Shown: positions 15,353 through 31,993 of the stretch, piece by piece
Layout of the letters: every line of letters starts with the position of its first letter
Numbering within the stretch: position 1 is the stretch's first letter
Assembly: GCF_000253055.1 (NCBI RefSeq)
Contig: NC_016070.1
Span: forward strand, 1,590,001 to 1,622,000
From: Thermoproteus tenax Kra 1
Lineage (GTDB): Archaea > Thermoproteota > Thermoprotei > Thermoproteales > Thermoproteaceae
Reading direction: 5' to 3'
Length of the DNA: 32,000 nucleotides
Notes under the pieces: generated by a model
Database searches by the model: none
Seen by the model: the letters and a program-made list of their open reading frames with translations, nothing else
What the model was told of the DNA's origin: nothing
Program-made: the position numbers and the translations under genes

Positions 15353-15627
15353 AGCTCGCCGTCTACTTTAACAATCCCGTAGGGTCTCAGCGGCTCAACT
15401 ACAGTTGCCCTCTCTCCCACAGGTATCGGGGATCTAACCAGTGGCTTCCTGAAGGTGAGCCGCGCGTAAAGAACGTAGGAGTACAGACCTATTAACGCCA
15501 GAGATGCCGGCACCCCCAAGAGGGGCGGGATGTAGCCGGCCACCGATAGCGCTATAAGTAAGACGCCGGCTATTAACAGAACCAAAGAGGAGATGTGGAG
15601 GACCCCTCTGAGATCGTGCTCAGACAT
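15247..15627 (-). CDS. NfeD-like membrane protein (two TM helices plus a C-terminal OB-like domain)
   Basis: Hydrophobic N-terminal half, then GIVKVDGELWRA...GECVTI, typical of the NfeD C-terminal domain. The ATG lies 1 nt after the end of repeat element B. Confidence 0.65.
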   Translation of the reverse strand: MSEHDLRGVLHISSLVLLIAGVLLIALSVAGYIPPLLGVPASLALIGLYSYVLYARLTFRKPLVRSPIPVGERATVVEPLRPYGIVKVDGELWRAVCDGCTAEVGECVTIISLKNGELLVRKCSTQ

Positions 15628-15628
15628 A

Positions 15629-15878
15629 ACGAGCCCCTCTCCGCCTTAGGCGGGGTCTGTGCTGTGGGAGTCTCGCCCGTTGCTCCTCGCCGGGACTAAT
15701 GGGCCGCTCCTGGCGAGCATCACGGCGGGGCGTCCCCTCGCCTGGGCCCTCGGCCGTTGACCCGCCCTCGCTGTATTGAACGCGCCACTGTTCAAATCTT
15801 TCTTCACTAACTCTGCCATGAGAGGATATAGATGCCGACTTAAATTCATCCCCGCCTTGAGGGATATGGCTTGTTGTT
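15629..15878 (-). mobile_element. Element B: protein-less, hairpin-bounded GC-rich element related to the IS200/IS605-type element at 26907..28251
   Basis: Read on the minus strand: degenerate left-end hairpin (CCCTCAAGGCGGGG), TTTAAG..ATCTATAT, a 15-nt block CAGAGTTAGTGAAGA identical to element C, GCAACGGGCGAGACTCCCAC (15664-15683), and right-end hairpin 15639-15655 followed by GGGGCTCGT. It is collinear with element A over its whole length. Confidence 0.55.
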
Positions 15879-15933
15879 CCCACATGTCGGTGGGGACATG
15901 GGCAAGGAGGGGCCACAAAGGGGTCAAACGGGG

Positions 15934-21932: not shown

Positions 21933-22852
21933 CTGATGTATAGTTTGAAGGTATCGTTAACTCTTCTTATGGCCCTCCTCGTGCATAACAGAGCGCAGGC
22001 CCCGCAGCCTGTACAGCTCTCCAACAACTTGGGAGCTCCGCCTTTGTCCATAGCCAAGGCGTCGCACGAGGACAGAAAACAATCGCCGCATCTATCACAT
22101 AGGGACGGCTCCACTTCGAACTCACCCGCGAATAGCTTATAGTCGTAGCCAACGACTCTCTCTCTAAACAGCCTACACGGATCCCCCCTTCTATTGATAT
22201 CAACTATATAGCCTCCTAGCTCTATAAACCCATCGTCTGTGCCGCCCGTAGAGATGGCTATGACCGGGCCGGCCTTATAGCCGCCTATTAATATGCCCTT
22301 GGCTATCGCCACGGCCGGTATGGGCGGCATATGGACTGAAACAATTTCGCTTACGGCGTCCGGCATAAAGTACGTCGGAAGGACTTGATAGTCGGTCTTC
22401 TCCTCAACGGGGCTCTTCATGTATATATCGGACACAACTATTGGGACATCGTCCCTAAGCTTCAGCAAGTTATAGAGACAGGCAAAGAGGGGCAGATACT
22501 CCCTCCCGGCGCCCCCTGTGCGAACCCATCGCCGCGCCCTCAAATAGTTTTTATTGAACGTGGAGACTCTAAAGGGCCTGGGCAACGGCTCCTCTCCCTC
22601 GTATCCGATCGGGCTTTGGGTCTTTTCGGAGAGAGCTATTGCCTCCTCTAGGTCTCTAACGCAGGGGAGCTCCTGCGGGCACGGAGAGAGGAGCATGGCT
22701 CCCCAGATCCCCGATCTTCTCACGATGTCGATCCACTCATTGCGGAACTCTCCCAGCACCAATACCCTCCTAAATGTGATCGAGAGGCCGAGGGCTATGC
22801 CCAGAGCATGGAGGTTGCCCAGCTCCTTGCCCTTTATCACAAACTCTATCAT
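21929..22852 (-). CDS. Hypothetical protein with a C-terminal 2x[4Fe-4S] ferredoxin-like domain
   Basis: Two cysteine motifs, CDRCGDCFLSSC and CTGCGACALLC, in the last 60 aa. The N-terminal ~240 aa are not recognised. Overlaps both neighbours by 4 nt (operon). Confidence 0.6.
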   Translation of the reverse strand: MIEFVIKGKELGNLHALGIALGLSITFRRVLVLGEFRNEWIDIVRRSGIWGAMLLSPCPQELPCVRDLEEAIALSEKTQSPIGYEGEEPLPRPFRVSTFNKNYLRARRWVRTGGAGREYLPLFACLYNLLKLRDDVPIVVSDIYMKSPVEEKTDYQVLPTYFMPDAVSEIVSVHMPPIPAVAIAKGILIGGYKAGPVIAISTGGTDDGFIELGGYIVDINRRGDPCRLFRERVVGYDYKLFAGEFEVEPSLCDRCGDCFLSSCDALAMDKGGAPKLLESCTGCGACALLCTRRAIRRVNDTFKLYIR

Positions 22853-23349
22853 GGAACTAGCCGCAGCCTAACGACGACCTTCATCAGCGCCTTTTTCTCC
22901 GCCGGAAAGTCATCTAAGGGCCTTGGACCGTTCTGTCTCACCCAGAGGCAGTTCTCAGACAAGAATACGTTGCCCGTCTTTACGTCGAGCACGAGGGGGA
23001 ACATCTTGCAAGCCAGAGGCTTTTTCTCGTGTATCGTGCATTTTCTACTCTTTCTGTCGAAAAAGGGGCACCACCCATCGATTATCCATCTGTAGATCTC
23101 TACTCCGTTAACTTCGCCGAGCCTCTTGAAGCTCAACTTGAGCCCCCTCCGCTCGGCCTCCTCCTTAAGTCTAACCATCTCCTCATGGAAGATGGTAGGC
23201 ATCTCCTCCTCTGATTCAAAACGGCAACAGTCCGCGGGACACCCGATGGGACATTCAAACGGCACTGCACAGTTTTTAAAGCTGTTTATAACCGTAAGCC
23301 TCGCCCTTAGGGCGGAGTGGGGGTTACAACAGAAAGCCCCGCCCTTCAA
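22849..23349 (-). CDS. YkgJ-family (UPF0153/COG0727) Cys-cluster protein
   Basis: CPIGCPADCC plus CPFF..KCTIHEKKPLACKMFP motifs. The track start (TTG 23349) lies inside the left-end hairpin of element A. The alternative start GTG 23265 (MPFECPIG...) has TATA TTATAAA ~22 nt upstream. Confidence 0.7.
   Translation of the reverse strand: MKGGAFCCNPHSALRARLTVINSFKNCAVPFECPIGCPADCCRFESEEEMPTIFHEEMVRLKEEAERRGLKLSFKRLGEVNGVEIYRWIIDGWCPFFDRKSRKCTIHEKKPLACKMFPLVLDVKTGNVFLSENCLWVRQNGPRPLDDFPAEKKALMKVVVRLRLVP
23290..23323 (+). repeat. Solo left-end remnant (second tandem copy of the element end)
   Basis: TTTAT-AACCGTAAGCCTCGCCCTTAGGGCGGAG parallels TTAC-AACAGAAAGCCCCGCCCTTCAAGCGGGG immediately downstream and the left ends of element C and the TnpB IS. 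Confidence 0.5.
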
Positions 23350-23580
23350 GCGGGGATGGATTTAAGCTATATTTTTTCATGGCGGAGCGGTGAAGAGAGC
23401 TGAGGAAGGCTTAAATAGCGGTGCGCGCCATAAGACGGGGCGGGCCAACTTGCATCAACTCGTAAGATGGCCCTGGCGGGGGGACACCACAATGCCTGCT
23501 CCGTCGCGGCCCATAACCCCGGGCAACGGGCGAGACCCCCACGGTGGAGACCCCGCCCTTTAGGGCGGGGAGGGGGTCAC
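23328..23580 (+). mobile_element. Element A: protein-less, hairpin-bounded GC-rich element of the same family
   Basis: Starts after TTAC (23324-23327). It contains a left hairpin (23337-23355), TTTAAGC-TATATTTTTT, CATGGCGGAGCGGTGAAGA, GGGCAACGGGCGAGACCCCCAC (23521-23542), and a right hairpin CCCCGCCC-TTTA-GGGCGGGG (23551-23570). It ends GGGGGTCAC, as the TnpB IS ends GAGGGTCAC. Confidence 0.6.
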
Positions 23581-23930
23581 ATGCTTCCCGTCCGCCCTTG
23601 GGCACTCGCCCCAATAAATATGAGGGGGGCGCGGGAGCCCTAATGGGGCGCCATCGTTGCTTTCAATTACTGCATGCGCCTTTGCTCTAGATATAAACTG
23701 GCTTGAGGCCTAAGTAGTGCTAAATTCCTGTTATTATAGATCTTTGTAAAATATATTATTTACTTTTGTTTCTATATCTATATCTAAGACCATTTACCTA
23801 TTCCGCCTTCTCTGTAATTTTTTGAATATAATAATTAATTTTTTAAGTTTCATAATCTCTCGTTACGTATATAAATATTACTTTATAAAAGGTTGGAGAA
23901 AAGTTTAAATCTAAGCTAAATCGTTAACTC

Positions 23931-24116: not shown

Positions 24117-24422
24117 ATGCCTAAGGTGATCGAGGTGGGCAGAATAGTTGTGAAGGTCTCTGGCAGAGAGGCCGGGAGAAAGGCCGTAGTCGTGGATCTA
24201 GTTGATGAGAACTATGTCGTAATCACAGGCCCGCGCAGCGTAAGCGGCGTAAAAAGAAGAAGGGTGAACATAAACCATATAGAGCCGACGGACAAGAAGA
24301 TAGATATAAAGAGGGGGGCGAGCGATGAGGACGTAGTAAAGGCGCTTGAGGCTGCCAACTTAATCGAATACATGAAAGAGAAGATAAAGCCAAAATTCGA
24401 GGGGGTTTTATCGGAGATTTAA
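24117..24422 (+). CDS. rpl14e: 50S ribosomal protein L14e
   Basis: KOW-like VGRIVVKVSGREAGRKAVVVD. 101 aa. Leaderless spacing to TATA ATTTTAAAAA. Confidence 0.9.
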   Translation: MPKVIEVGRIVVKVSGREAGRKAVVVDLVDENYVVITGPRSVSGVKRRRVNINHIEPTDKKIDIKRGASDEDVVKALEAANLIEYMKEKIKPKFEGVLSEI

Positions 24423-24430
24423 GGTGCTTT

Positions 24431-25122
24431 ATGACCGCGCTCCCCGCCCTAAAGGGCGGGGTTTCCCCTCGCCCACGCCTTCATCGGCATCCAGGATACC
24501 TCCGGCGCGGGCTCATCGGGCATGGGGCCGGGCGGCGCTCGGCCCTCCTCGGGGCAGAGCACCTCATTTGGTGAGGCGTGTGCGCATATTGGGTCTTCCG
24601 CCTGCATCTGCGACGACCCCCGCTCATGCGGGATCCGCACCGTGGGGGTCTCGGCCGTTGCCCTCCTCGGGGTTAATCCGCTCGACATCGGATAACGGGC
24701 CTCTATCCTCCCCGGCGCTCTGAGGCCGGCCCTCGCGGCGTTCAGCGCGACGTTGAGCCTCCTGCGGAGCACGAGCCCTCTACAGCCCCGTACGTCGACT
24801 ACGTGCTCGCTCTGCCGCCCGTGCGCTACGTCCTCGGGTATCCTGCGTATACCTCAGAGACCCCCGATTCCCGCAACATCCCGGCGAGCCCTCTGACCGC
24901 CGTATTTCGATAGTGCCTCAACCTCTACCATCCTCCAGAGCGCCTTTAGGTAGAGGCGGCGCCACCCCGCTCATTGCCGATGCCGCTCTTCGTTTTGCCC
25001 CCGCGTGGCGCCCGCCCTTGCCCCTCCCTCTCCTTTCCTCGGTCCTCTTCACTAACTCTGTCATAGAAAAAATATAGATGTTCGGCTTAAAACCTACCCC
25101 GTGAAGGGCGAGGCTTTCGGTT
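24431..25122 (-). mobile_element. Element C: 692-nt composite protein-less element filling the whole rpl14e-cbf5 spacer
   Basis: On the minus strand it starts after TTTAC (25127-25123). It has a left-end hairpin remnant, TTTTAAG..ATCTATAT, and CAGAGTTAGTGAAGA (25046-25060, identical to B). An internal right-end-like block GGGCAACGGCCGAGACCCCCAC (24642-24663) plus a hairpin follows. The last 182 nt resemble the tnpB 3' end and right end of the intact IS. The terminal hairpin is 24442-24461 and the element ends GGTCAT (24436-24431). All ORFs inside are R/P/G/A-rich and not protein-like. Confidence 0.6.
25067..25077 (+). promoter_or_regulatory. TATA box (AAAAAATATAG) inside element C, facing outward and driving cbf5
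   Basis: It is centred ~25-30 nt upstream of the cbf5 GTG (25101). The same box in the same position relative to the element end is found at 23367-23377 (minus strand) upstream of the ykgJ TTG. Confidence 0.6.
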
Positions 25123-26117
25123 GTAAACGAGATATTTATGTAAAGACGCCAAATGAGACAACCGACCCTCAATGGGGCAGGCCGCCCGCCGATAGGCCGA
25201 TCGAAGAATACATAAGATATTCTTTTGTAGTACTGGACAAACCGCGCGGCCCCTCGAGCCACGAGACAGTCGCTTGGCTCAAAAGAATCTTGAACGTGGA
25301 GGTCGCAGGCCACTCGGGCACTTTAGATCCCAACGTGTCTGGGGTCTTGCCTGTCGCCATCGCCGAGGGCACCAAGGCGCTAATGGCCCTCTCTAGAGCC
25401 GACAAAACCTATGTCGCCGTCGCCAAGTTTCACGGAGACGTCGACGAGGCTAAGCTGAGGGAGGTTCTCGCCTACTTCACAGGCGCCATTTATCAGAGAC
25501 CGCCTCTAAGGTCTGCGGTCAAAAGACAACTCCGCGTGAGGCATGTGTACTCCTTGGAGCTACTGGAGCTGGACGGCAGATACGCGCTCCTCAGAATGCA
25601 TGTAGAGGCGGGGACCTACGCCAGGAAGCTCATCCACGATATAGGCGAAGTGCTGGGCGTGAGCGCCAACATGAGAGAGCTGAGGAGGGTCGGAGTCGGG
25701 TGTTTTACAGAGGAAGAGGCCTTCACGCTACAGGATATAGCAGATGCAGTATACATATGGAGGAACTACGGCGATGACACTGTACTGAGGCAGATAGTGA
25801 AGCCCATAGAGGAGATAGCAAGAGGGGTCGCCAAGATCTGGATAAAGGACGGCGCCGTAGATGCTGTGTGTCATGGCGCTCCTCTGGCGGCCCCCGGCGT
25901 CGTCAAGTTCGAGGAGCCCTTCCAGAGGGGCGACCTTGTTGCATATTTCACGCTCAAGGGCGAGCTAGTCGCCCTGGGGAGGGCCTTGATGTCCAGCGAT
26001 GAACTGAAAAGAGCGGACAAAGGGCTTGTGGCTAGAACAGACCGCGTTGTCATGCGGCCCGGCACCTATCCCTCAATATGGAGGAGAAAACCTAATAAAT
26101 TAGAGGGAAGATCCTAG
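25101..26117 (+). CDS. cbf5: H/ACA RNP pseudouridine synthase Cbf5 (TruB family) with C-terminal PUA domain
   Basis: [11 protein letters not shown] catalytic Asp motif. [19 protein letters not shown] is collinear with archaeal Cbf5 N-termini. PUA-like C-terminus. The GTG start and first 7 codons lie inside the left end of element C. Confidence 0.9.
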
Positions 26118-26119
26118 AG

Positions 26120-26413
26120 GTGGATCTGCCGGTCAGACGCGTGGTTATAGACGCGGCGATCCCAACGAAGAACGTATCTATTGTGGACGTAGCCAAGTCG
26201 CTCTATGAGACCAGAGGCGTCAAGGCCGTGAGAGTTATCGTGGACGATGTCGACGTAGATGTCTTGGGGCTGATAGTGGTGGTCGAAGGCGAGGGAGTCG
26301 ACGTTAAGGAGATACAAGACGCCATAGAGAAAGTGGGCGGCGTCGTGCACTCATTGGACGAAGTTGTAGTGGGAGAATACATCCCAGAGGTGCACGCACA
26401 AGAGGGCGCTTGA
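26120..26413 (+). CDS. DUF211 family protein
   Basis: 97 aa. RRVVIDAAIPT...IVDVAKSL...GVKAVRVIVDDVDVDV..L.IVVEGEGVD matches the DUF211 pattern. GTG start 2 nt after the cbf5 stop. Confidence 0.65.
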   Translation: MDLPVRRVVIDAAIPTKNVSIVDVAKSLYETRGVKAVRVIVDDVDVDVLGLIVVVEGEGVDVKEIQDAIEKVGGVVHSLDEVVVGEYIPEVHAQEGA

Positions 26414-26910
26414 GAAGATACGTAGTACTAGGGCTACTAGATGGAATTATCACCGCCGTCAGCTTGACCTCGGGCCTGCTAGTAAGAGGCCACGCGTTGC
26501 GCATCAGCGAGGCGCTATCGATTGCAGTGGTCGTGGCTACGATAAATTCGCTCACGAGCTTTATAGCCGAGTACTCCCATCAAAGGGATCTGCTCAGAGA
26601 CCTTGAATACAAAGTGTATCTAAAATCAACTGGACATATTTTTAAAACGCTGGTACATAGGAGGGCTCTGTTCAACTCAGCCCGCTCGTCTCTGTATAAC
26701 TTCCTCTCGTCGGCTGCGGGCGCTCTATCGGTGTTGGTGCCCGCCTCGGTCAAAAGCGAATACGGCCTGTATGCCCTAGCCGCAGTGGCTTTTCTAGTAT
26801 CAGTTGTATTGTCTAAGAACCTAGTCGAGTTCGGGGAATGGCTTCTGATGGTGTGCGTCTCTGCGCTGATAGGGCTGGCGGTAGGTCTCCTCTTCCCCTT
26901 AGCTGTGTGA
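26410..26910 (+). CDS. Short VIT1/CCC1-like membrane protein
   Basis: VVLGLLDGIITAVSLTSGLLV N-terminal motif and hydrophobic C-terminal helices. Its TGA stop (26908-26910) lies in the terminal nucleotides of the TnpB IS. Confidence 0.5.
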   Translation: MRRYVVLGLLDGIITAVSLTSGLLVRGHALRISEALSIAVVVATINSLTSFIAEYSHQRDLLRDLEYKVYLKSTGHIFKTLVHRRALFNSARSSLYNFLSSAAGALSVLVPASVKSEYGLYALAAVAFLVSVVLSKNLVEFGEWLLMVCVSALIGLAVGLLFPLAV

Positions 26911-27100
26911 CCCTCTCCCCGCCCTAAAGGGCGGGGCTTCCCCCGTTCACCCGGCCTTTGCGGCTCGGGCTCATGTGGGGGTTCTGGGCGGGGTCACGGC
27001 GCCCCATCCCCGGCCTCTCGTTAAGGCCAGGGCTATGTTGATCGCCGCGTTTAAGTCTCTGTTGTATCTAAGTCCACATCTTGGGCACCTAAACTCTCTA
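26891..27100 (-). ncRNA. Predicted omega (right-end) RNA of the TnpB element, including ~16 nt of flanking guide
   Basis: Inferred by analogy with characterised TnpB systems, where the RNA spans the tnpB 3' end, the right-end hairpin and the flank. Here that covers the GC-rich tnpB 3' end, hairpin 26917-26936 and flank 26906-26891. The 5' limit is arbitrary. Confidence 0.3.
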
Positions 27101-28251
27101 CCTTTCACCTCATCAACGGTGAATCCGCACCTATGGCATGTTCTACTGGTGTTCTTCGGCTTTACGTACACAATCGGTATTCCGCTGAGGAGCGCTTTGT
27201 ACTCAATGTACTTCTGGAGCTTCCTAAAGCTCCACGAGTGCAACCTCCTATTCAGTAGTTTGTTGTCTCCACTCATCCTATCTCTAATCCCCTCTAAGTC
27301 CTCCATGACGATGACTGGTTTGGGGAACTGCTTGGCATACTCAACAACCCCCTTAGCTATTTCGTGGAGCATCTGATTGACTGTTCTGCCCTCCTTACTG
27401 CCAATCCTCTTAACCAGGTCAAGTCTCTTCTTTCTCTGCAGGCTACGCCTAATGTGAGCGTATTTGCCGCGCACAAACCTAATCCTCTGCCCACCCCAGA
27501 ACTGCCCCCTCATTGGCCTGCTCGGGCTGTCCCTAGATATGGCCGCGGCCGCAACTGCGTTCCACTCGCCGAGGTCTACGCCTATGAGCGTCTTCGCCTC
27601 CTCAGCACCGTAGGTGACAACGTTCTTCTTAATCTTGAAGTGAGCGAACCAAACGCCGTCTCTCTTAACCAGCTCCACACTGTCGAGCTCCCACAGCCCC
27701 TGCAGGGTCTCCTCAATGAACTGCTTCTGTCTGCTACCGAAAGCTAGTGGTAGCGCTATCCTAACACCTCTTCTCAAGCTAACGACAAGCCAGTAAGGAG
27801 TTAGCTTAGTGCTGGACTTATCGAGCTTGAACGCCCTCCTATCTAGACGAATAGATACCCTCTTAACCGCTGGCCTATCAGCCTTGGCTCTGCCCTCTGC
27901 CTTACGCTCACTAAAGCTCTTGAGAATCTCAACGGCCTTGTCCCTCGCAGTCTGTATCAGCGCAGTGTTTAGGCTAAACCTCTTTTTGGCTTCCTCATAC
28001 GTTAGCTCGTGAAGCTTCGTCTTCGACGTGATGCCGAAGCCCACATACCATCTAACCAACTTGAGGTACTCTTCAAGAGCTCTGTTGAGCTCAAGGGTCT
28101 TGCCCTTGTTAGGCTCAATCACCTTTCCAACAACCGTGAGAACGACCGAGGTCATAGGGGAACATCCCCTCATAGATCGAGTTCAACGGTCAACCTAAAA
28201 GCTTAACGCCGCATAGTGCCATCCCCGCCCTAAAGGGCGAGGTTTTCAGAT
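26907..28251 (-). mobile_element. IS200/IS605-family insertion sequence carrying only tnpB (IS1341-like), 1345 bp
   Basis: Left-end hairpin at 28223-28242, preceded on the minus strand by TTAT (28255-28252). Right-end hairpin CCCCGCCC-TAAA-GGGCGGGG at 26917-26936, followed by the terminal GGTCAC (26912-26907). No tnpA and no terminal inverted repeats or target duplication, as expected for this family. Confidence 0.8.
26971..28173 (-). CDS. tnpB: TnpB (IS605 OrfB-type RNA-guided endonuclease), apparently intact
   Basis: RuvC-I D (IGVDLGEWN), RuvC-II E (VIVMEDLEG), Zn ribbon CHRCG..(x13)..CPRCG, RuvC-III D (YNRDLNAAINIA). The probable true start is the second Met (MTSVVLTV, 28155). Confidence 0.9.
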   Translation of the reverse strand: MRGCSPMTSVVLTVVGKVIEPNKGKTLELNRALEEYLKLVRWYVGFGITSKTKLHELTYEEAKKRFSLNTALIQTARDKAVEILKSFSERKAEGRAKADRPAVKRVSIRLDRRAFKLDKSSTKLTPYWLVVSLRRGVRIALPLAFGSRQKQFIEETLQGLWELDSVELVKRDGVWFAHFKIKKNVVTYGAEEAKTLIGVDLGEWNAVAAAAISRDSPSRPMRGQFWGGQRIRFVRGKYAHIRRSLQRKKRLDLVKRIGSKEGRTVNQMLHEIAKGVVEYAKQFPKPVIVMEDLEGIRDRMSGDNKLLNRRLHSWSFRKLQKYIEYKALLSGIPIVYVKPKNTSRTCHRCGFTVDEVKGREFRCPRCGLRYNRDLNAAINIALALTRGRGWGAVTPPRTPT

Positions 28252-28255
28252 ATAA

Positions 28256-28650
28256 CGAAGACGGCGCGGGAAAGAGGAACTAACGCCAGAGCCCAAGCAG
28301 TCGTTAAGAGGGGCAGGTCTCGCCCGACTTCCGGCACCGAAACTCTAGTGAGACTAATTCCAGCGAGGTGGCTCACCTTTGGATTTCTATTCTCGCACCA
28401 CATCTGACTTTCAGGGCCGAGATAGGCCGGATGGGGCGCGAAAAAGCGCGGGACAATTGAGAGAGCCGCGGACGGGGGAGGTAATGAAGAGGGAGTATTT
28501 ATCCGTCCGCTCCGGCGCGACCGGTCTCCCTCGCCTCTGCTACGTCCGTTGAGGCGTCCAGCGGGGATAGGCTCGGGGCCCTCAGAGGGGCCGAGCGCCG
28601 CGAGGGCTCCAGAGGCACGCTGTCTTTTTAAACATCCCCGAGGGCAGTTC
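28256..28650. other. GC-rich, highly structured non-coding island of unknown function (candidate ncRNA gene or fourth decayed family member)
   Basis: About 390 nt with no credible ORF. It contains many local hairpins, e.g. GCGGACGG..27 nt AU-rich loop..CCGTCCGC (28468-28510) and GCTCGG..CCGAGC (28571-28596). On the minus strand it has a TTTAAAAAG TATA box at ~28626-28634 next to CCCTCGGGGATG, which resembles the left end of element B. Confidence 0.3.
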
Positions 28651-28652
28651 CT

Positions 28653-31472: not shown

Positions 31473-31919
31473 ATGGAGTTCCCCGATATAGAGCTGAGGG
31501 CCCACACAGGTGAGACCGTGAGGCCTAGGTCCTTTGAAAGGGCTGTAGTATATTTTTTCCCAAAGGCGTTCACATCGGGATGCACGCGCGAGGCCATACG
31601 ATTCAACGAGCTCTACGATGAGTTTAAGGCCTTGGGCGTGGAGATCTTCGGGATCTCTACAGATAAAATAGACACTTTAAGAAAGTTCGCCGAAAAGTAC
31701 CAGTTGAAGTTCAGATTGTTGAGCGATGAGGGAGGAAATCTGGCGAGACAGTTAGGCATACAGAGGCCCAGCGGCTCGGCCGAGAGGGTCACTTATATCT
31801 TGGAGAGAGGGCGCGTGGTGGAGGTTCTTCGCAATCTCAGAAGCGCCGATCAACACGCAGATAGAGCACTGGAGGTCGCCAGAAGGGCGTTCAAGGCAGG
31901 CGGACCCGGTGGGATTTGA
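31473..31919 (+). CDS. bcp: Peroxiredoxin, Bcp type
   Basis: FPKAFTSGCTRE peroxidatic-Cys context in a thioredoxin fold. The last 19 nt overlap the convergent tRNA-Arg. Confidence 0.85.
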   Translation: MEFPDIELRAHTGETVRPRSFERAVVYFFPKAFTSGCTREAIRFNELYDEFKALGVEIFGISTDKIDTLRKFAEKYQLKFRLLSDEGGNLARQLGIQRPSGSAERVTYILERGRVVEVLRNLRSADQHADRALEVARRAFKAGGPGGI

Positions 31920-31993
31920 ACCCACGACCTACGGCTCTCGGCGGCGCCGGCCACCGCAGGCCGCCGCTCTGATCCAGGCTGAGCTACGGGTCC
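31901..31993 (-). tRNA. tRNA-Arg(GCG) with a 17-nt canonical (37/38) intron
   Basis: Minus strand: GGACCCG-UA-GCUC-AGCCUGGAUCA-GAGC-G-GCGGC-CUGCGG[UGGCCGGCGCCGCCGAG]A-GCCGU-AGGUC-GUGGG-UUCAAAU-CCCAC-CGGGUCC-G. 93 nt = 76 + 17. Confidence 0.85.

Follow-up and report, generated by a model that had tools for sequence, protein, structure and literature searches.

Genes and Features of the Locus

The DNA analyzed here is a 32,000-nucleotide (nt) window of the Thermoproteus tenax Kra1 genome (1,590,001-1,622,000), in which a window coordinate equals the genome coordinate minus 1,590,000. The window carries rpl14e and, downstream of it, cbf5, encoding a conserved ribonucleoprotein (RNP) enzyme, the archaeal H/ACA pseudouridine synthase, and between the two genes lies a 692-nt segment, here called element C, a decayed derivative of insertion sequences (IS) of the IS200/IS605 family. 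Element C interrupts the original 5′ end of cbf5, and its left end appears to provide the start codon that the gene uses today. The features on which the argument depends are as follows (ORF, open reading frame; aa, amino acids).

24117..24422 (genome 1,614,117-1,614,422), plus strand: rpl14e (TTX_1857, L14e), intact, with stop codon TAA at 24420-24422; from the ORF list and the published annotation.
24424..24430, plus strand: orphaned original 5′ end of cbf5, consisting of GTG (codon 1), CTT (codon 2) and the T of codon 3, at the relatives' start position.
24424..24723, plus strand: ORF without meaning, 99 aa, opened by the orphaned GTG at 24424 and running into element C; from the ORF list.
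24431..25122, minus strand (the IS608-sense top strand is the window minus strand): element C, non-autonomous IS200/IS605-family derivative, 692 nt; from its absence in six orthologous loci, its GC content and its shared ends.
25101..25122, plus strand: element-derived GTG with the next six codons and 1 nt (MKGEAFG and the T of the Cys codon), the sole in-frame start.
25101..26117 (genome 1,615,101-1,616,117), plus strand: cbf5 (TTX_1861), GTG start, 338 aa; from the ORF list and the published gene table.
26120..26413, plus strand: DUF211 gene; from the ORF list and Pfam.
26410..26910, plus strand: membrane protein gene TTX_1863; from the ORF list and the published annotation.
26971..28173, minus strand: tnpB (Pfam Cas12f1-like_TNB); from the ORF list and Pfam.

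The rpl14e product gives weak Pfam matches to Ribosomal_L14e and KOW, while the 99-aa ORF matched no family in a Pfam scan. The Pfam set of Cbf5 is complete (DKCLD, TruB_N, TruB_C_2, and PUA; E 6e-16 to 5e-25 over residues 11-316), with DKCLD running from residue 11 and the catalytic GTLDP motif present, and the protein is 80-83% identical to its Thermoproteus orthologues. A database fragment recorded as Cbf5 of T. tenax Kra 1 matches the ORF with 100% identity. Today's rpl14e-cbf5 spacer measures 678 nt (24423-25100) and contains no known structured RNA at Rfam gathering thresholds. Element C has a GC content of 0.65-0.70, compared with 0.52-0.55 in the flanking genes. It leaves 8 nt of original sequence on its left (24423-24430) and reaches 22 nt into the present cbf5 ORF. 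The original prediction had equated a 692-nt spacer with the element; the length of the element stands, but the spacer is shorter than the element, which is offset into the ORF. The coordinates it gave for the orphaned GTG and the ORF that this codon opens hold.

The Empty Site in Related Genomes

In five of five Thermoproteus contigs (L001-L005), the cbf5 GTG lies exactly 1 nt past the rpl14e stop codon, and the Pyrobaculum aerophilum locus (L094) has a 4-nt overlap of rpl14e and cbf5. The hairpin, left-end tip, and core motif that mark element C occur in none of these six orthologous rpl14e-cbf5 loci. About 40 Cbf5 orthologues were also inspected; those from Thermoproteus begin with MS(L/I/V)C(S/K)R(D/E).. 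and those from Pyrobaculum with M(K/R)C.., placing the start codon 2-3 residues ahead of a conserved Cys, and the T. tenax start, MKGEAFG, is found in none of them. Since the relatives have a tight junction, lack the repeat, and lack the MKGEAFG start, the polarity of the event is clear: an insertion occurred in the T. tenax lineage.

The empty site can be rebuilt precisely. Excising 24431..25122 yields ..gagatttaag GTG CTT TGT AAA CGA GAT ATT.., encoding (M)LCKRDIYVK and starting 1 nt past the rpl14e stop codon; the reconstructed T. tenax site is GTGCTTTGTAAACG. Its counterpart in L001 reads ..gagctttgat GTG TCG CTT TGT AAA CGG GAG ATA.., and the 12-mer GCTTTGTAAACG that spans the proposed joint (GCTTT/GTAAACG, where the slash, here and below, marks an element boundary) is unbroken there. 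Because of flanking T residues, deletion of 24429..25120 or 24430..25121 gives the same product, and 24431..25122 is the choice made by the IS608 rule described below. The original prediction had foreseen an in-frame reconstruction and an empty site in relatives, and both were borne out. It had also anticipated an N-terminus of the ML(C)KRD type; the Cys start pattern does recur in the relatives, but they begin MSLC, one codon longer than MLC.

Ends of Element C and the IS608 Rules

IS608 inserts 3′ of TTAC, which is also its left cleavage site, and leaves a seamless donor joint (PMC3201880). Guide tetranucleotides 5′ of its hairpin feet recognize the cleavage sites, the left guide (GL) being AAAG, which pairs with TTAC, and a TCAA some 10 nt beyond the right-end hairpin, on its 3′ side, closes the element (PMC3201880). 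The corresponding features of element C are listed here.

24431..24434, minus strand: right-end tetranucleotide TCAT (ATGA on the plus strand); from tip comparison.
24442..24461, minus strand: right-end subterminal hairpin CCCCGCCC-TTTA-GGGCGGGG, 8 bp, intact; from repeat search and fold.
25095..25113, minus strand: left-end subterminal hairpin, decayed, top strand CCTCGCCCTTCACGGGGTA, with 5′ arm CCTCGCCC and a shortened and mismatched 3′ arm; from fold and homology to element B and the tnpB IS.
25114..25117, minus strand: guide tetranucleotide AAAG, directly 5′ of the left-end hairpin foot and identical to the IS608 GL.
25123..25126, minus strand: target and left cleavage tetranucleotide TTAC (GTAA on the plus strand), kept beside the left end; from the sequence and the empty site.

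Read on the minus strand, the left end of element C is ..ATCTCGTTTAC/AACCG AAAG CCTCGCCC.., and the right end is ..CCCCGCCCTTTAGGGCGGGG AGCGCGG TCAT/AAAGCACC.., with ..GGGCGGGG-AGCGCGG-TCAT/ at the tip. All four features by which an IS200/IS605 element is recognized are present: precise deletion without target duplication, subterminal hairpins at both ends, a guide, and a TCAN right end. The original prediction's use of the IS608 boundary rule at this locus is thus in agreement with published behavior (TTAC, seamless joint, AAAG, and TCAT; PMC3201880), and the rule works equally well on the neighboring tnpB IS, as it had stated: deletion of 26907..28251 gives ..GCT GTA TAA and keeps the TTX_1863 C-terminus ..PLAV. 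The right-end tip of the tnpB IS (GTGACC..) now supplies the TGA stop codon of TTX_1863 (26905-26910).

The ends of element C are shared with other elements of the window, at 15629 (element A), 23328 (element B), and 26907 (the tnpB IS). Two further occurrences of the cbf5-side 24-mer of C (25103-25126), at 23324-23347 and 23286-23309, differ from it at 2-3 positions, where shuffled sequences predict 0 occurrences, and the hairpin CTCCCCGCCCTAAAGGGCGGGG is found at 24440, 26915, and 28221, with its reverse complement at 23546. Right-end tips read ..GGTCAT/ in C and in copies from Caldivirga, and ..GGTCAC/ in element B and the tnpB IS. At the left ends, the target and guide are TTAC/AACCG-AAAG in C, TTAC/AACAG-AAAG in B, and TTAT/ATCTG-AAAA in the tnpB IS; in this last element, guide and target co-vary as the IS608 rule predicts. 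The left-end hairpin of C has lost its stability (z -0.24, DNA fold against shuffles), whereas B keeps a 6-bp stem and the tnpB IS an 8-bp stem. No tnpA was found in the window by ORF list and Pfam, and among the entries listed in the published T. tenax gene table there is no COG1943 or IS200 tnpA, only tnpB genes and fragments. Element C is most likely a fixed, immobile fossil.

Comparison of the loci and of the ends demonstrates the insertion, its exact site, its conformity to the family rules, and the swap of N-terminal codons in cbf5. The opposite history, in which a long spacer was ancestral and was lost by deletion in the relatives without any insertion, is effectively refuted. No point was found in its support, and it would have to account for a tight junction in six loci of two genera, for spacer edges that coincide with exact IS608-type ends beside TTAC, for the occurrence of both ends in other repeats of the window, and for a spacer GC content 10-15 points over that of the flanks.

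Composite Make-Up and a Putative Right-End RNA

Element C is not a simple copy of one element. It comprises the following parts.

24431..24613, minus strand: segment C2, an extra right end with a tnpB 3′ remnant from another lineage; from alignments and peptide match.
24614..25122, minus strand: segment C1, a copy of the short element of A/B type, enlarged internally by ~250 nt; from alignment to 15620-15885 and 23310-23600.
24606..24650, minus strand: inner right-end-like hairpin, decayed, at which the A/B alignment with C begins; from alignment and fold.
24449..24772, minus strand: TTX_1858, degenerate tnpB C-terminal remnant, 107 aa; from the published best match.
24423..24502, minus strand: HgcC-like RNA motif of the right end, of omega-RNA/sotRNA (sense overlapping transcript RNA) type, reading outward to rpl14e; from Rfam RF00062, 23.9 bits, E ~0.013-0.02.

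Elements A and B align with only the inner 509 nt of C (~24614-25122), and the inner hairpin folds as DNA with -12.3 kcal/mol (z -2.3). An internal right-end-like hairpin had been proposed in the original prediction and is real, extending over ~24606-24650. The same prediction considered C composite, which it is, and likened its last 182 nt to the adjacent tnpB; here only ~52 nt (hairpin and tip) of C2 are alike, and the rest comes from another tnpB lineage. An 88-nt part of C2 (24462-24549) is 91% identical to positions 3190-3277 of L215 from Pyrobaculum islandicum (CP000504), and a C2 peptide matches Pisl_1681 at 26 of 33 residues. A cross-genus identity of 91% over 88 nt is far above the level in the surrounding genes, which suggests that an RNA scaffold is under constraint here or that this IS lineage has spread horizontally in recent times.

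The published BLAST best match of TTX_1858 is IS605 OrfB of P. islandicum (E = 1e-09), the same protein that is the best match of other transposase fragments in the T. tenax genome. None of the ORFs of element C gave a Pfam match to a tnpB domain, a protein search with TTX_1858 returned only itself and a short P. islandicum ORF, and tblastn against the TnpB of the window gave a weak similarity (RRLNVALNAA to an RDLNAAINI-like segment, E 0.12). Because these signals are absent or weak, the identification of a tnpB remnant rests mainly on the published BLAST match and the 88-nt P. islandicum match. As judged from these alignments, element C is composite, with a tnpB parent that belonged to a lineage other than that of the neighboring tnpB.

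HgcC has been tied to 3′-end transcripts (sotRNA) of IS1341-type tnpB genes and to palindrome-associated transposable elements, or PATEs (PMC4615843). A permissive scan with HgcC (RF00062) found the right ends of B (31.7 bits), C (23.9 bits), and the tnpB IS (21.7 bits), all on the same relative strand and with E values of 1e-4 to 0.08. All three matches fall below the gathering score of 50, and the likeness is concentrated in the terminal hairpin and tip. They support a right end of omega-RNA type and do not indicate membership of the HgcC family.

Probable Origin of the Present cbf5 Start Codon

Within the cbf5 frame, a stop codon at 25089-25091 is followed by the GTG at 25101, after which no ATG, GTG, or TTG occurs before codon 63. 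The left end of the element, read in this frame, is ..CCCC GTG AAG GGC GAG GCT TTC GGT T/, and its last T rebuilds the Cys codon (GGT T/GT). The genome authors annotated TTX_1861 from the same GTG, which lies within the former loop and 5′ arm of the left-end hairpin. From this arrangement, the GTG at 25101 probably serves as the cbf5 start codon. Copies A and B carry a TTG at the equivalent position, and C differs from them by a 2-3-nt loss that yields GTG. Since A and B have TTG there, a start codon is native to the hairpin loop of this subfamily.

If the insertion instead silenced cbf5, or left only an N-truncated protein made from the TTG/GTG codons 63/65, the intact ORF would reflect a recent event. 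This course is improbable. It draws some support from the fact that the published annotation merely takes the first start codon, and from the database, which holds no T. tenax-like empty-site sequence by which the event could be dated. Reportedly, cbf5 is also dispensable in Haloferax volcanii. The element is, however, old and decayed, having lost its left hairpin, being composite, and retaining a tnpB remnant without a Pfam domain, and no tnpA is among the published gene table entries listed. The 338-aa ORF has in turn stayed free of frameshifts and stop codons, its domains are matched over their full length, and with a start at codon 63 the protein would lose the DKCLD segment together with a conserved motif. 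Continued expression of cbf5 from the element-derived GTG is the preferred reading.

A Possible Promoter in the Left End

Genes of the window that have an upstream region of their own show an 8-10-nt TATA-like box, then 16-20 nt, then the start codon, a spacing that is the geometry of leaderless mRNAs. The candidate signals in the left end of element C, which include a box resembling a TFB-recognition element (BRE) with TATA box, are compared with it here.

25066..25078, plus strand: AGAAAAAATATAG, BRE/TATA-like box facing outward, candidate cbf5 promoter; from spacing comparison.
25087..25094, minus strand: GTTTTAAG, located 19 nt ahead of a vestigial ATG (MTELVKR..) and probably the inward-facing TATA box of the parent; from the sequence.
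Promoter geometry, left end of element C: AGAAAAAATATAG, 3′ end at 25078, ~22-23 nt to GTG 25101.
Promoter geometry, left end of element B: AAAAAATATAG, 17 nt to TTG 23349.
Promoter geometry, rps7: AAATATAG, 17 nt to the rps7 start.

An AT-rich box is kept at the GTTTTAAG position in the left ends of family members beside tnpB N-termini, and the left-end fragment 25040-25140 also contains the motif AAAATATAG. The plus-strand reading of the inward box, CTTAAAAC (25087-25094), was considered as the cbf5 promoter and rejected, since only 6 nt separate it from the GTG and it represents the inward TATA box conserved in the family. Archaeal TATA boxes are near-symmetric, a property on which an outward start from the parental promoter region would rely. 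On the basis of position and spacing, an outward promoter for cbf5 may be borne by the element itself.

Several observations weigh against the reading in which element C supplied cbf5 with its start and its mRNA. The reconstructed N-terminus, MLC, is one codon shorter than the MSLC of other Thermoproteus; we take the absence of the Ser codon from MLCKRD.. to be a lineage difference unconnected with the insertion. In element B, a TTG likewise adds 28 in-frame codons to the gene of a CxxCxxCC protein (TTX_1856), which keeps its native GTG (VPFECP.., as in the orthologues) and a TATA box 16 nt upstream. In-frame starts at left ends can arise by coincidence. The gap of 22-23 nt from the TATA-like box to the GTG in C is slightly outside the 16-20 nt typical of the window, while the family-conserved box is too close to the GTG and, if fired outward, would start transcripts downstream of it. 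Finally, the plus strand of element C has no run of at least 5 T, so that read-through from rpl14e would be possible and an element promoter is not required.

The last points bear on a doubtful but possible alternative, namely that the same insertion took place without an element promoter, transcription from the rpl14e promoter reading through the 692 nt and translation initiating internally at GTG 25101. The ancestral arrangement was a tight rpl14e-cbf5 operon, the plus strand offers no oligo-T of at least 5 as an archaeal terminator, and the TATA-like box stands slightly too far from the GTG, all of which fit this account. Internal initiation is harder to accommodate. There is no Shine-Dalgarno-like sequence ahead of GTG 25101 (..cttaaaacctacccc GTG), and a structured leader of 65-70% GC would impede scanning-free internal initiation. 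Translational coupling is gone, as ribosomes that re-initiate after rpl14e would do so at GTG 24424 and terminate at 24723, which is 378 nt short of the present start, and start codons elsewhere in the window lie at leaderless distance from their TATA boxes. A promoter in the left end of element C is therefore retained as the favored mRNA source in what follows.

Proposed Course of Events

In the sequence of events that we favor, element C entered the minus strand by single-strand transposition, directly 3′ of a TTAC that corresponds to plus-strand GTAA across cbf5 codons 3-4 (..CTT T/GT AAA..), with no bases gained or lost. The insertion cut cbf5 off from its original GTG, whose earlier translation was probably coupled to that of rpl14e. 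The gene is kept open by the left end, lying in the cbf5 frame, and the present Cbf5 N-terminus would then be MKGEAFG followed by Cys. The mRNA would most likely come from the AT-rich BRE/TATA-like box AGAAAAAATATAG of the parent element's promoter region, read outward. Such a transcript would be nearly leaderless, beginning a few nt ahead of GTG 25101, and would also carry the DUF211 gene and TTX_1863. We assign a probability of roughly 80% to this explanation as a whole, that is, to a fossil insertion that brought a new start codon and a likely mRNA source in its left end, the element being a dead, non-autonomous IS200/IS605-family derivative of the archaeal tnpB-only (IS1341) type, comparable to a PATE.

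Related Copies and Neighboring Insertions

A protein search with an ORF across element B, meant to reveal annotated ORFs on other copies of the family, returned nothing. Two further short copies lie in the window.

~15629-15878: element A, short copy, 250 nt, with a degenerate left end; from alignment with C.
23328..23580, top strand plus: element B, short copy, 253 nt, with TTAC target and ..GGTCAC/ end; from alignment.

Both A and B are short, non-coding, and multi-copy and carry two IS ends, as PATEs and elements resembling miniature inverted-repeat transposable elements (MITEs) do; C is longer and composite. The right-end tip of element A lies 1 nt ahead of the TTX_1846 start codon, an ATG at 15627-15625 on the minus strand; the gene encodes an NfeD-like membrane protein, and because the tip abuts this codon there is no room for a TTX_1846 promoter of its own between element and start. 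At TTX_1846, the outward direction of A is that of an omega-RNA-type transcript. Element B is situated in the divergent promoter region between the CxxCxxCC gene (TTX_1856) and rpl14e, and its TTAC directly borders the remnant of a solitary left end, 34 nt long (23290-23323), whose own target is the TTAT at 23286-23289. The junction of this remnant, GGTT/ATAAAC, forms the TATA-like box that precedes the native GTG of the CxxCxxCC gene by 16 nt. The TTG of element B was considered as a second donation of a start codon and rejected, the downstream gene having retained both its native GTG and its TATA box.

A contig scan for relatives of the family used the conserved core GTGGGNGTCTCGNCCGTTG, to which most matches were chance bacterial ones. 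In the genome collection, of which T. tenax is not part, it found three real copies, all in Caldivirga sp. MU80 (L031, L041, L064). These are non-autonomous elements of ~285 nt with the tip ATGACCCCCTCCCC.., the core ..GTGGGGGTCTCGTCCGTTGCCCC.., and a left-end hairpin as in T. tenax; the conserved core CACCGTGGGGGTCTCG.CCGTTGC is common to the T. tenax and Caldivirga copies. On this sequence evidence, the short-element family spans genera of the Thermoproteales. The hairpin CCCCGCCCTAAAGGGCGRGG occurs in more than 120 metagenome stretches, many of them beside tnpB genes, and no close sibling of element C was seen in this metagenome hairpin scan.

Other features of the window deserve mention. 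The published start of TTX_1856 (22849-23349, minus strand), an ATG at 23202 giving 117 aa, would remove the FECPIGCPADCC motif and looks too far downstream; its orthologues begin at the GTG equivalent to 23265-23263 (VPFECP..). Between the left end of the tnpB IS and TTX_1865, ~400 nt of GC-rich DNA (28252-28652, GC 0.56-0.66) occupy a gap that measures 20-30 nt in relatives, and this stretch resembles neither the fetched loci nor other parts of the window and gave no Rfam match. A tRNA gene was identified by Rfam at 31899-31993 (minus strand, 56.8 bits), for which ARAGORN left the anticodon call undetermined; an intron probably lies inside it. The T. tenax genome paper lists 13 tRNAs with introns.

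Implications

The same genome paper describes IS elements as rare, with five transposase ORFs, counted transposase ORFs alone, and makes no mention of cbf5 or of small repeats. The T. tenax case is thus previously unremarked, although the kind of event, insertion of a non-autonomous IS200/IS605 element, is already known, and knowledge of the transposition mechanism is unchanged by the finding. Short non-autonomous IS200/IS605 derivatives are unreported in T. tenax, and there are three in this 32-kb window. Element C accounts for the odd 678-nt gap and the atypical Cbf5 N-terminus in the genome of the type strain. A conserved RNP enzyme gene, hit in its coding sequence, would have survived by taking a transposon end as its new 5′ end, and the ancestral state is kept base for base in relatives. 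The locus may offer a compact natural case of outward promoter activity of archaeal IS200/IS605 ends and of leaderless translation from a former transposase-binding hairpin.

A broader and much more tentative idea is that the left end of the Thermoproteales subfamily could act as a portable cassette for leaderless expression, with a BRE/TATA-like box and a TTG or GTG in the hairpin loop, open to the tip. If this were true, signals of transposon origin would drive transcription of cbf5, the DUF211 gene, and TTX_1863, and the first seven residues of Cbf5 would be encoded by the transposon. The decay of its hairpin (2-3-nt loss compared with A and B, TTG to GTG, stem broken) would then have immobilized the element and at the same time made the start codon accessible. 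More generally, the two ends could routinely re-wire neighboring genes in gene-dense archaeal genomes, the right end through an omega-RNA-type outward transcript and the left end through a symmetric TATA box.

Comparison With Known Systems

Element C agrees with IS608 and ISDra2, which move by single-strand "peel and paste" transposition, in the TTAC target kept at the left end, the seamless joint without target duplication, subterminal imperfect hairpins in place of terminal inverted repeats, the AAAG guide 5′ of the left hairpin foot, and a TCAN ~10 nt 3′ of the right-end hairpin foot. It differs from them in lacking tnpA and an intact tnpB, in its archaeal host, and in its decayed left-end hairpin, with which the copy is probably immobile. 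The TTAC is also 9 nt from the hairpin foot in C, compared with 19 nt in IS608.

With haloarchaeal PATEs (PMC4615843), the family shares short non-coding elements that join the left and right ends of an IS1341-type element, multiple copies within a genome, and an HgcC/sotRNA-type RNA motif at the right end. However, it belongs to a Thermoproteales lineage with another hairpin, and C, at 692 nt, is unusually long and composite, including tnpB debris and an additional right end. One copy, moreover, lies here inside a coding sequence whose start codon it would supply.

The resemblance to TnpB omega-RNA, sotRNA, and HgcC lies in the consensus HgcC 3′ end, CCccCGcccUUuAgggCGggGAGGAGGUCAG, which equals the right-end hairpin and tip found here, and in matches that are on the tnpB-sense strand and extend into the flank like a guide-bearing omega-RNA. 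In contrast to those RNAs, the matches here score 22-32 bits compared with 50, the neighboring tnpB shares ~52 nt of scaffold with C, and the RNA at this locus is a predicted one.

Outward or hybrid promoters that activate neighboring genes are familiar from IS10 pOUT and from ISAba1 upstream of bla genes. As in these systems, the end of a mobile element would give the adjacent gene its expression signals. In contrast to them, the signals are archaeal, a BRE/TATA box for leaderless mRNA predicted from sequence, and the end of element C would also give a conserved RNP enzyme its start codon and seven N-terminal residues.

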